Virus genome (UHGV): UHGV-0353285
DNA length: 16,819 nucleotides
Reading direction: 5' to 3' (one strand)
From: a virus
How positions within the stretch are numbered: the stretch's first letter is position 1; the number at the start of each line of letters is the position of its first letter. The notes under the pieces were generated by a model. It worked only from the letters and a program-made list of their open reading frames with translations, had not been told where the DNA came from and did not search any database. Below, one piece after another: positions 8,527 to 12,626 of this stretch. Made by a program: the position numbers and the translations under genes.

Positions 8527-9155
8527 CAATGACGAGCCAGAGTGTACTGCCTCCTAACGCAGTAACACCAGAAAGAGCGCTGGAAGCCGTTTTATCTCAT
8601 GTCGGCGATTTGCCTGGTGATATACGAATTATTAAAAATCCCGACCTGTGTCCCGCAAATTTGCTCCCATGGCTAGCGTGGGAATACGCGGTTACGTACT
8701 GGAATCCGGACTGGAGTGAGCGACAAAAACGCGAAATTATCAAAGCAGCCGCGTGGCAAAACAAACACCGCGGCACCCGTGGAGCTGTTGAACGCGCGTT
8801 ATTAACTGTCGGATTTAATAGCAAAATGCGCGAGTGGTTTGAAGCCACACCCAGGGACGACCCGTATACATTCGCAATTAAAATATATCTGCTAAAAAGT
8901 ATGGGGTTAGATTTAGAGCTATTGAATACATTTATTGCACAAATATTTGATGCAAAAAATTGTCGTTCATTATTAAAAGAAATAAATTTCGAAACTGGTG
9001 TTGATGGTGAGTTTTTTATAGCTGGTACACCTTACGCGAAAATAGGCGTAAATATACCGGCAGATGGTGATGGCGGCGTGAAATTAAATGGCGGATTATA
9101 TATATCAGGCTCACCAATTGTTAGTTTAAATGTGGAGATAGGGCCAAATGGCTGA
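8523..9155 (+). CDS. Baseplate/tail protein I (P2 gpI-like)
   Basis: 210-aa ORF with conserved N-terminal block (LLPWLAWEY.V..W...WSE..KR..I). Start is GTG at 8523 (overlapping the J stop) or ATG at 8529. The C-terminal third is markedly AT-rich. Confidence 0.82.
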   Translation: MTMTSQSVLPPNAVTPERALEAVLSHVGDLPGDIRIIKNPDLCPANLLPWLAWEYAVTYWNPDWSERQKREIIKAAAWQNKHRGTRGAVERALLTVGFNSKMREWFEATPRDDPYTFAIKIYLLKSMGLDLELLNTFIAQIFDAKNCRSLLKEINFETGVDGEFFIAGTPYAKIGVNIPADGDGGVKLNGGLYISGSPIVSLNVEIGPNG

Positions 9156-10065
9156 AAATAAAATTTACGCAGTACTGACAGACCGCGGCGCACAACTCGA
9201 AGCCGCTGCGCTGGCGTCAGGCGTGCCGGTGGTGCTGAACAAATTTGTTATCGGTGACGCGAACGGAAACGACGACGTAACACCGGATCCGGCGCGTACT
9301 GCATTAATTCACGAGACGTATCGCGGGGATATTAAATCGTCAGAAAATAGTGGTAACCAGGTTATCTTTACACTATACGTACCACCGGAAACCGGCGGCT
9401 ATACTATCCGTGAGGTGGGAATATTAACCGATAAAGGCGAACTGTACTCAGTTGCACGTTCACCGGATATTTTAAAACCTACGGACAGCAACGGCGCGCT
9501 GATTTCAATTACGTATAAATACACGCTCGCGGTGTCCAGCACGTCTACTGTTAACGTAGTTATTGATAACAGTAGTGGAATGAGTCAGGCCGATGCTGAT
9601 AAGCGATATTTGCAGATAAGAAAAAATTTATCTGAAATTAAAGACAAAGGCGCGGCGGCGCAAAAAACGGCACGGGAAAATATCGGCGTTAATCTTGATG
9701 ATTATTACACCAAAAAGGACGTAGACAATTTAATTGATGATAGCGATGACCTCGCACCGGTGGTGCCTGCGTTTGCAGCTGTCGGCTCAGTTGTTTATGC
9801 AGGATTTGGATTTAGTAACGAGACTGTTATGCACTATAAACCCGGGGATACTATTGCAGGTTCATTGATTTTTCCTGCGTATATATATAGAAAAAATGCG
9901 CAGTTAATTAGCGACGTTATTATTAGTATAGGATTTTCAGCAGAATCCCTGCCTGGCTTGTGGGCGCTCTCAGGGTATATGCCGTCGAGTTCCGAACCGA
10001 CAGACGGTAATGCCGAAGCTATTTTTACAGCGAGTTTTGCAACAAATTTCATTAGAGTAGCCTAA
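9148..10065 (+). CDS. Tail fibre protein (P2 gpH-like N-terminal baseplate-attachment domain, divergent C-terminus)
   Basis: 305-aa ORF with start overlapping the gpI stop. The N-terminal ~130 aa (KF.IGDANGNDD..PDP..TALIHE.YRG...S......V.FT...PPE.GGYTIREVGI.TDKGELY) resembles the conserved fibre N-terminus. The C-terminal half is AT-rich and unrecognised. Confidence 0.75.
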   Translation: MAENKIYAVLTDRGAQLEAAALASGVPVVLNKFVIGDANGNDDVTPDPARTALIHETYRGDIKSSENSGNQVIFTLYVPPETGGYTIREVGILTDKGELYSVARSPDILKPTDSNGALISITYKYTLAVSSTSTVNVVIDNSSGMSQADADKRYLQIRKNLSEIKDKGAAAQKTARENIGVNLDDYYTKKDVDNLIDDSDDLAPVVPAFAAVGSVVYAGFGFSNETVMHYKPGDTIAGSLIFPAYIYRKNAQLISDVIISIGFSAESLPGLWALSGYMPSSSEPTDGNAEAIFTASFATNFIRVA

Positions 10066-10070
10066 ATAAA

Positions 10071-10304
10071 ATGTTTAAAGATGATGATTTTTCAAATATA
10101 AAATTACCGCGCTATTCTAGCACATCAGGCAATAGTATTGATGTTAAATGTGATATCAGAGGTATCGGTAGTGATATTTTATTTACTGCATCTAAAACCG
10201 ATTCCACATTATATGGAAGGAATTTATACGAGCGAGCTTTGGCCGGTGAATTTGGTGATGTCGCTGAATATGTGGCTCCAATTATAATCGAATCAGGAGA
10301 GTAA
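10071..10304 (+). CDS. Hypothetical small protein (possible tail fibre assembly chaperone or accessory gene)
   Basis: 77-aa AT-rich ORF in the slot where P2-like tails carry the fibre assembly gene. No clear SD and no recognisable family. Confidence 0.3.
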   Translation: MFKDDDFSNIKLPRYSSTSGNSIDVKCDIRGIGSDILFTASKTDSTLYGRNLYERALAGEFGDVAEYVAPIIIESGE

Positions 10305-10309
10305 AAGAA

Positions 10310-10651
10310 ATGAGCACTAATTTTTTACATGGGCCTCGCACGCTCGAATACGACGACGGCACAAAAGAGATCAACACAGTCGATATTTCAGTTATCGGGA
10401 TTGTTGGTACTGCACCGGATGTTGGGCTAGGGGAGAGGGCATCATTAACGTGGGGATCACCGCTGGCAAATAATGTAGTCACCTTTTTCCCGGTCTATTA
10501 TGGGGATTACGGAAATAAATTTGCAGTTGAAATTATTAAGAAGGGTATTTCTGGAATTAAATACGGATATAGCACACTTCCAGACGGAACAATAAAATTA
10601 ACGCTCGGGACCGACAGCACAACAAGCCGGAACGGCTGGCGCAAGACGTAG
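10310..10651 (+). CDS. Small ORF carrying a tail sheath N-terminal motif (sheath 5' fragment or split sheath N-terminal part)
   Basis: 113-aa ORF with strong SD (AGGAGA, 10292-10297). The first ~37 residues (MSTNFLHGPRTLEYDDGTKEINTVDISVIGIVGTAPD) match the conserved N-terminal strand of contractile sheath proteins. The stop TAG (10649-10651) overlaps the GTG of the downstream sheath ORF. Confidence 0.5.
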   Translation: MSTNFLHGPRTLEYDDGTKEINTVDISVIGIVGTAPDVGLGERASLTWGSPLANNVVTFFPVYYGDYGNKFAVEIIKKGISGIKYGYSTLPDGTIKLTLGTDSTTSRNGWRKT

Positions 10652-11802
10652 TGACTCACGGTGAAGGGCGAACCGCTGAGGATTGTATTTGTGTAGGCAT
10701 TGACGAGGACAGTAAAAATGACGGAATTGTTTATCAGATGCCCGTCACGAGCCTGACGGGCGGTTCTGACGCTCCATTTCCAGTCAACATACCCACACTA
10801 ATTGCAGGTAGTCAGAAAAAAGCGGCGCTCCTGGGTGCAGCAGGCACTCTCCCCGCAGCCATCACTGATATTTTAAATCAGACAGATGCGCTAATTGTTG
10901 TTGTTCGCGTAGACGAAAACACAGACGCGACAAAAGAGCGTGAGAACGTAATCAACGGAATTAACGTTTTGTTAACATCGGGACAAATAAACCAGGTGAC
11001 TCCACGAATTTTGATTGCACCTGATTACAGCGCTAATGACGACGTCGCTGCCGCGCTGGAGGTAGTCACAAATAAATTACGTGGAGTCGGCTATATTGAT
11101 TCTCCACGCACGGCATCGCCCGCAGACGTCGTTAACCGCCGCCATAAATATAGCGCGCGCATGGAAATACTACGCCCGCGTGTGTTTTCCACGGGCGATC
11201 TCAGTGATCTGTCGCGTCCATATTCAGCTATCGCCGCTGGTTTACGAGCCAGAATTGACAACGAAAAAGGGTTTTGGTGGAGCAAATCTAATCAAAATAT
11301 TTATGGAATAACAGGGCTTGAGCAGGTTGATGATTTCATTATTGGCGAGACAAACTGCACGGCGAACCTGCTGAACGCTAGTCAGGTAAGCACCATCATT
11401 CGCTATGATGGATTCCGACATTGGGGTAACTATCTGTGCAGCCTGGATCCGCAGTGGTCGTTTGAATGCGTTCGTCGGACAGCTGACGTAATTGAAGATT
11501 CTATAGCCCGGGCAATGATGACAGATTTTATTGATCGCCCGATAGACCTGCATCTCGGAACAGACGTTGTCGAGTCGATAAACGCATATCTGCACAAATT
11601 AGAGGAGCAGGGTGCGATTAACGGAGGGCGTGCGTGGTTAGACGGTGAGTTGAATACAAAAGAAAGTCTGGCCGCTGGTAATCTTTATATTAATGTTGAT
11701 TTTGGTCCGAAATCTCCGGCACAAACAATTACGTTAATGTACCGCATTAATAATGACTATACAGTTGAAGCGCTGGCCTCCCTTTTTAAAGAAACAGCCT
11801 GA
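10651..11802 (+). CDS. Tail sheath protein (P2 FI-like)
   Basis: 383-aa ORF with sheath-like blocks throughout (FPVNIPTLI.GSQKKAA, ALIVVVRVDE, PRILIAPDYS, LRARID.EKGFWWS.SNQ.I.GITG, C.ANLLNA..V.TIIRYDGFR.WGN, LYINVDFGP). GTG start with weak SD; the frame is open upstream only back to 10573. Confidence 0.88.
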   Translation: MTHGEGRTAEDCICVGIDEDSKNDGIVYQMPVTSLTGGSDAPFPVNIPTLIAGSQKKAALLGAAGTLPAAITDILNQTDALIVVVRVDENTDATKERENVINGINVLLTSGQINQVTPRILIAPDYSANDDVAAALEVVTNKLRGVGYIDSPRTASPADVVNRRHKYSARMEILRPRVFSTGDLSDLSRPYSAIAAGLRARIDNEKGFWWSKSNQNIYGITGLEQVDDFIIGETNCTANLLNASQVSTIIRYDGFRHWGNYLCSLDPQWSFECVRRTADVIEDSIARAMMTDFIDRPIDLHLGTDVVESINAYLHKLEEQGAINGGRAWLDGELNTKESLAAGNLYINVDFGPKSPAQTITLMYRINNDYTVEALASLFKETA

Positions 11803-11819: not shown

Positions 11820-12332
11820 ATGTCAGATAGCAACGCTTACCGCGCGTTTGCGCTATTCGTGCAGGGTGAACGGGTTTTAAATTGTACTGAATATACTCCA
11901 GTCGATATGAAAATAATCGAAGACGAGTTTAAAACAGGCGCGATGGATACAGCCATCACCTTGGATGGTGGTATGGAGAAAATGTCAGCAAGTTTTAAAG
12001 TTTCAGGTTCTGATTCTGGTGTTATGAGCTATTTCGGGTTAATACCGGGAGTCAAGACGCGGTTTGAAATTCGTAGTGCGTACACAGACTCATATGGAAT
12101 AAATTTTGAGCGTATTGATACCTACGAGGGACTTATTACAGCAATCACTGATGACGCTCAGGGGACTGATTCAAAATCGTCAGTGGGGCAATCAGTAACG
12201 ATTGCGCCGAGCTATTATAAACGAGTTCAAAACGGACGAATTATTTACGAAATTCATCCTGCAAAAATGAAGCGCGTTATTAACGGTGTTGATGTTCTTG
12301 CGGGCGTCGCTCGAATCCTTCATGTATATTAA
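11820..12332 (+). CDS. Tail tube protein (P2 FII-like)
   Basis: 170-aa ORF directly after the sheath with GGAGAG SD. Size and motifs (GGMEKMSASFKVSG, SYYKR, INGVD.LAG) fit the tail tube family. Confidence 0.85.
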   Translation: MSDSNAYRAFALFVQGERVLNCTEYTPVDMKIIEDEFKTGAMDTAITLDGGMEKMSASFKVSGSDSGVMSYFGLIPGVKTRFEIRSAYTDSYGINFERIDTYEGLITAITDDAQGTDSKSSVGQSVTIAPSYYKRVQNGRIIYEIHPAKMKRVINGVDVLAGVARILHVY

Positions 12333-12344
12333 AAGGCAAATAAA

Positions 12345-12626
12345 ATGGAATCATTATTAGACAGTATGACTATTACGCTCTCTCGCCCGTTTATTATTAA
12401 AGGCGAGAGCTGCGATACAATTACTATTCGCGAACCAAAATTACGCGATCGTATTATGTTCAGTAACGATAAAAGTGGTCTTGAAGAGCGGACAGCGACA
12501 ATGCTGGCACGCTTGGCAAATCTGGAGCGAGAGGATTTATATGCACTGCCTGCGTGCGATTACGATCAAATGGAGGCCGCGTTTAACGAACTGGTAAAGC
12601 CCCCGAAAGACCGACATCAGATATAG
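12345..12626 (+). CDS. Tail assembly chaperone E (P2 gpE-like)
   Basis: 93-aa ORF between the tube and tape measure genes, the conserved position of the tail chaperone. The N-terminus (ITLSRPFIIKGE..DTITIREPKLRD) resembles gpE-family proteins. Confidence 0.75.
   Translation: MESLLDSMTITLSRPFIIKGESCDTITIREPKLRDRIMFSNDKSGLEERTATMLARLANLEREDLYALPACDYDQMEAAFNELVKPPKDRHQI

Follow-up and report, generated by a model that had tools for sequence, protein, structure and literature searches.

Probable inactivation of an Escherichia coli prophage tail sheath gene by a one-base deletion

Introduction

The N-terminal arm of a contractile sheath protein must belong to the protomer in order to link subunits, as is evident in the structures of the pyocin R2 and T6SS sheaths. 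In the stretch of viral DNA considered here (UHGV virus genome UHGV-0353285, 16,819 nucleotides, referred to as the window), that arm and the sheath core are encoded by two separate open reading frames (ORFs). This arrangement raises the question of whether the pair is a disrupted gene, the outcome of a duplication or recombination, a genuine two-part sheath, or simply an error in the assembled sequence. The anatomy of the two ORFs given in a preliminary description of the window holds: ORF1 (10310–10651) has an ATG start and encodes 113 amino acids, and ORF2 (10651–11802) has a GTG start and encodes 383 amino acids. Their frames differ, and the TAG that ends ORF1 (10649–10651) shares a base with the GTG of ORF2 (10651–10653) in the overlap TAGTG, giving the pair a joint span of 1493 nt (10310–11802).

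Results

The region was found by megablast in 453 of 5426 complete E. coli genomes and was chromosomal in every case. Four relatives were fetched for examination of the homologous position, TUM13936 (L001), RM10042 (L002), EC28 (L003) and vB_EcoM-569R10 (L004), and all have a single sheath ORF there, of 1494 nt in the first two and 1503 nt in the other two, so that the range in related E. coli prophages is 1494–1503 nt (497–500 amino acids). The N-terminal arm and the core are on one uninterrupted ORF in all the fetched relatives and are not so in the window. A further relative, L008, likewise has a single ORF, and tblastn placed both window ORFs in a shared frame in L001, L002 and L008.

The closest relative is strain TUM13936, whose sheath gene has 99.6% nucleotide identity to that of the window. 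A global alignment of positions 10310–11802 with L001:2514–4007 (1493 versus 1494 nt) has one gap, together with substitutions at 10685 and 10959. The gap represents a missing C in codon 106, which changes from ACG to AGC, with ACAACAACGCCGG in TUM13936 corresponding to ACAACAAGCCGG in the window, and the context of the missing base, CAACAA[C]GCC, has no homopolymer. Upstream of the gap the gene is identical to the intact TUM13936 allele. Where the intact protein reads ...DSTTTPERLAQDVVTHGEG..., ORF1 has an out-of-frame tail that is terminated by a premature stop codon (Table 1). Fourteen complete E. coli genomes have this domain allele and all of them differ from the window at the deletion, the best match among them having 98.9% identity with one gap and one mismatch.

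Table 1. Positions of the parts of the disrupted sheath gene in the window
Feature	Position	Strand	Details
5' part of sheath gene, native frame	10310..10625	+	codons 1–105 and first base of codon 106
Extra surface-type domain of two-domain sheath	10385..10770	+	residues ~26–150; contains the frameshift
-1 frame with the rest of the sheath	10573..11802	+	open from 10573; native sequence from 10626
Site of one-base deletion	10625..10626	+	C of intact allele missing
Out-of-frame tail of ORF1 and premature stop	10626..10651	+	SRNGWRKT (8 residues), TAG 10649–10651

The part of the gene that precedes the deletion encodes the N-terminal arm (residues ~1–25) and the first two thirds of an extra outer domain. 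The first start codon in the -1 frame is the GTG at 10651, which is Val115 of the intact 497-residue protein, and ORF2 supplies the remaining third of the extra domain as well as the conserved core and the C-terminal arm, with 99.7% amino acid identity to TUM13936. Residues 106–114 are encoded in the -1 frame before its first start codon and are absent from both products. ORF2 had been considered to be of full sheath length, but it begins at Val115 and has no N-terminal arm. Its match in length to a minimal sheath is a coincidence, as it is composed of ~35 residues of the extra domain plus the core.

Both ORFs belong to the tail sheath family. The start of ORF1 had been recognized as a sheath N-terminus, and its first ~37–62 residues indeed match phrog_23 "tail sheath" (E 1.3e-9, profile positions 19–80), setting aside the possibility, also raised, that ORF1 is a member of an unrelated family. 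A Pfam scan of ORF1 alone gave no match, and its sheath N-terminus was evident only via PHROGs. ORF2 exceeded the Pfam cut-offs for both Phage_sheath_1C (53.6 bits, cut-off 26.9) and Phage_sheath_1 (42.3 bits, cut-off 31.4). The protein repaired at the deletion matches phrog_23 over residues 1–495 (E 1.3e-102), and its residues 149–489 align to residues 33–383 of the pyocin R2 sheath (3j9q; phmmer, E 1.8e-50). Homology to pyocin R2 therefore resumes at residue 149, window ~10754, in keeping with the earlier estimate that ORF2 is sheath-like from ~10771. Since this alignment starts at pyocin residue 33, ORF2 has nothing that corresponds to the first ~32 residues of the pyocin sheath. Pyocin R2 sheath chains were also the top Foldseek matches of the core (E ~1e-13), although for part of the core the AF2 model is of only moderate confidence (pLDDT below 50 for residues 340–385). 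Residues 1–24 and 490–497 were modeled as disordered, as would be expected of arms that become ordered only within the assembled sheath.

The ~350 nt that separate the two regions of sheath similarity had been proposed as an insertion. However, this segment is a native domain. A homologue search of a large protein collection returned 581 proteins, of which 56 (487–522 amino acids) were aligned, and the segment is in frame in all 56. Within it, residues ~45–145 are the stretch of the protein with the lowest conservation among those homologues. AF2 modeling with the homologue alignment produced a compact domain for residues ~26–150 with a pLDDT of ~90, consisting of three strands, a short helix, three strands, a helix (residues 107–118) and two strands; modeled alone, the extra domain had a pLDDT of 82.8. 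Helix 107–118 begins just past the frameshift break in the model. Published modeling has described the sheath core as being formed jointly by N- and C-terminal portions of the protein, between which additional domains are inserted, and two-domain sheaths as spanning 426–713 amino acids (PMC9230969). The 497-residue protein has this known two-domain (type 2) sheath architecture, with a compact added domain between its N-terminal part and the rest of its conserved core. A Pfam scan of 25 extra-domain sequences produced only a faint Phage_sheath_domII signal in three of the 25 (best E 0.036). A mobile insertion in the sheath gene (IS, intron or intein) was considered and rejected, as the ~350-nt segment is kept in all the aligned homologues.

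The extra domain also differs from the rest of the gene in its divergence. Nucleotide identity to L003 and L004 is 0.57–0.59 over the domain versus 0.81 over the core and 0.89 over the N-terminal arm. Such fast divergence points to diversifying selection on an exposed surface of the tail, or to domain exchange.

The frameshifted allele is frequent in sequence databases. The exact 113-residue product, including its eight wrong residues, was identified on 263 contigs and in 376 index blocks (NCBI, ENA and Logan), and the exact ORF2 on 226 contigs. Over 16.5 kb the window is 100% identical to GCA_032097535.1 (L005), and two variant products (P0002 and P0007) have the same out-of-frame tail plus a further substitution. 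The deletion allele is in none of the 5426 complete E. coli genomes of RefSeq, the exact 38-nt pattern across the deletion was absent from GTDB species representatives and IMG/VR, and no literature was found on the assembly accessions. The closest intact allele is on 15 contigs versus the 263 of the frameshifted allele. A higher database count of the latter is expected for a well-sampled clone, and is compatible with tolerance or selection.

Other disruptions were observed among the relatives. An assembly with the same sheath frameshift, GCA_036604055.1 (L006), has its tape measure gene (L006:12426–14074) split into ORFs of 149 and 413 amino acids. Its only difference from the window is one 8-nt indel, possibly located in that gene, and the split may reflect continuing decay of this prophage or else a mistake in the assembly. 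In TUM13936 (NZ_CP134358.1), three places match this region. A separate 128-residue "hypothetical protein" of that strain (WP_310984158.1, P0004) is a sheath N-terminus truncated elsewhere (...AEDYIV), and is an independent disruption of a second sheath copy.

The genomic context of the sheath gene is that of a contractile-tail module. Upstream of it are the genes for baseplate V, W, J and I and a fiber, and downstream are Phage_tube (11820–12332), adjoining the sheath gene within the module, and Phage_TAC_7 (12345–12626). This P2-like tail module comes after a lambda-like head module with a portal, an S49 protease, a gpD-like decoration protein, a gpE-like capsid protein, FI and FII. Further upstream, relatives (including L008:1–10000) have a Q antiterminator, holins, a lambda-type gpA terminase and gpW. 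The right prophage end adjoins yecA-tyrP, and the flanking chromosomal yecA, tyrP, yecH, ftnA and yecR are 100% identical to those of E. coli. The element is a lambdoid E. coli prophage having a lambda-type late/head region and a P2-type contractile tail. The 20 other head and tail genes of the window that were tested are all full length in comparison with the relatives.

This structural module is covered by four GenBank records of ~20–27 kb (ON470596, ON470604, ON470624 and ON470627), which are named "Escherichia phage vB_EcoM-...R" and carry the label of complete genomes. Because a preprint on phages located within clinical E. coli isolates names two of these, the records seem to represent genome-derived prophage sequences and not isolated phages.

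The tail-fiber cassette that precedes the sheath gene (9148–10304), which encodes a 305-residue fiber and a 77-residue protein, is mosaic and has a low GC content (0.35–0.43). Its proteins have ~80% identity to those of the L002/L008 type, and in its place L001 and L003 have different, longer fibers, L003 having an additional 129-residue protein. The 77-residue ORF (10071–10304), located between the fiber and the sheath, matched no Pfam family but matches the N-terminal ~70 positions of the tail-fiber families phrog_1795 (E 3.4e-10) and phrog_1141, and is kept at 79% identity in RM10042-type prophages. Potentially, it may be a small fiber-associated protein or a fragment of a fiber gene.

Discussion

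Our analyses indicate, with a probability that we place at about 0.9, that positions 10310–11802 represent one two-domain sheath gene of an E. coli prophage that has been inactivated by the loss of a single C. Of the earlier proposal that a sheath gene had been disrupted by a ~350-nt insertion or a frameshift, the frameshift stands, as one base at 10625/10626, and the insertion falls away. The intact protein consists of an N-terminal arm, the variable domain of ~125 residues, a core of the pyocin R2/P2 FI type and a C-terminal arm. Translation of the window's gene from its true start would produce residues 1–105 and eight wrong residues and then stop, and the remaining 383 codons would be left in the -1 frame, where they start with a GTG that lacks a ribosome-binding site. 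The residues missing from both products, 106–114, form the start of the extra-domain helix. As the deletion is inside the extra domain, the N-terminal arm and the core would no longer be on one chain. With the arm on a 113-residue fragment and the core starting in a broken domain, a functional contractile tail would not be expected to form unaided, and we infer that the prophage is unable to build a working contractile sheath by itself. The lesion is probably recent, since all the other structural genes tested are intact.

Could the true genome have an intact 497-residue gene and the window a sequencing or assembly error, as the preliminary description allowed? Sequencing errors do classically appear as single-base indels, and one allele-bearing assembly (L007, CP114369.1) has many other broken genes. 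However, two other assemblies, L005 and L006, carry the allele amid clean neighboring genes. Because the exact frameshifted product is on so many contigs from several sources, GCA_032097535.1 matches completely, the variants share the out-of-frame tail despite their own substitutions, and there is no homopolymer at the missing base, the deletion is, judged from assembled contigs, a genuine mutation that is passed on within an E. coli lineage, making an error highly unlikely. Practically negligible is the chance that ORF1 is the leftover 5' fragment of a second allele, placed by recombination or partial duplication before a complete sheath gene. The length of ORF2 is near the 386 residues of the minimal pyocin sheath, and a mosaic junction lies shortly before the gene (~10297), with similarity to L001 falling there from 99.4% to 86.7%. 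Yet there is no junction inside the gene, as both ORFs are collinear with one intact allele at 99.5–100% per segment (arm 100%, insert 99.5% and core 99.9%), and this alignment to L001 already refutes the second-allele explanation. Nor is there a degenerate second copy of the ORF1 N-terminus at the start of ORF2, as had been suggested: their best local alignment scored 16 versus 20.6 ± 4.4 for shuffled sequences, with 92% of 2000 shuffles reaching at least the observed score, and ORF2 has no arm of its own. The 5' part had also been described as AT-rich, but GC content is 0.459 in the arm, 0.474 in the insert and 0.472 in the core, with no compositional break.

If the deletion is real, the sheath might still be rescued. 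Programmed -1 ribosomal frameshifting or transcriptional slippage could restore the full-length protein, as ORF2 is in the -1 frame and that frame is open for 76 nt (10573–10648) before the ORF1 stop codon, so that a shift within this zone would yield a near-native protein. This is extremely unlikely, as the zone has neither a slippery X XXY YYZ heptamer nor a run of ≥5 identical bases. In addition, the gene is one ORF in all relatives examined, for which reason the two-frame layout represents a recent mutation and not a conserved recoding site. We regard as very improbable that ORF2 is produced by termination-reinitiation at TAGTG and that the two fragments reassemble non-covalently into a working protomer, a recent change from a one-chain to a two-chain sheath. 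Two-chain contractile sheaths do occur in T6SS (TssB/TssC, VipA/VipB), the overlap could support translational coupling or reinitiation, and the frequency of the allele in databases is the sole hint toward a tolerated split. Against this, the break is inside a folded domain just before a helix, residues needed to complete that domain's sequence are in neither product, and GTG 10651 is not preceded by a Shine-Dalgarno sequence. A genuine two-part arrangement, another of the explanations proposed earlier, is common to no relative examined, and the gene is only three changes from the intact allele, and therefore has had no time for adaptation to two chains. A two-gene sheath of the TssB/TssC type was likewise rejected, as the pair is not conserved and ORF2 has no Shine-Dalgarno sequence of its own. 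Together, the lack of a slippery site, of a Shine-Dalgarno sequence and of any relative with this layout leave programmed recoding and a conserved two-gene sheath unsupported.

The window's sheath gene is a lineage-fixed frameshift pseudogene of an already known and annotated two-domain sheath family, and as such has little significance beyond annotation. In public records, ORF1 is a "hypothetical protein" and ORF2 a "sheath C-terminal domain-containing protein"; a single annotation as a frameshifted sheath pseudogene would describe the pair better. Accordingly, the prophage of this E. coli lineage is best scored as tail-defective, a status that we infer, despite its otherwise intact late-gene module. 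More generally, given the extra domain of ~125 residues in this family, even a truncated gene can leave an ORF of "full sheath length".

Comparison with known sheaths places the E. coli protein among several systems. Its conserved core is common to the minimal one-domain sheaths of R-type pyocin (PA0622, PDB 3j9q) and P2 (FI), and the gene order of the window is P2-like. However, in the pyocin sheath the N-terminal arm runs directly into the core, whereas the E. coli protein adds ~125 residues between them. With the two-domain (type 2) sheaths DSY3957 (PDB 3hxl) and phiCD508 gp55 it has only the architecture in common, the extra domains having weak similarity, with a large rmsd, no significant Foldseek match and no Pfam model. 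The T6SS sheath proteins TssB/TssC (VipA/VipB) resemble the window in forming the protomer of a contractile sheath from two adjacent genes, but that arrangement is ancient and conserved, whereas the one in the window is barely removed from an intact allele and cuts a folded domain. The closest counterparts are the RefSeq E. coli proteins named "phage tail sheath C-terminal domain-containing protein", WP_310984150.1 of TUM13936 (497 amino acids) and WP_039264465.1 of RM10042. They are products of the same gene, found at the corresponding position in prophages of the same family, the window having 91.6% nucleotide identity to the RM10042 type in addition to its near identity to TUM13936, and they share with it a tail fiber upstream and the tube, assembly chaperone and tape measure downstream. 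The window differs from them in that one C of codon 106 has been lost, leaving ORFs of 113 and 383 amino acids where its relatives have one.
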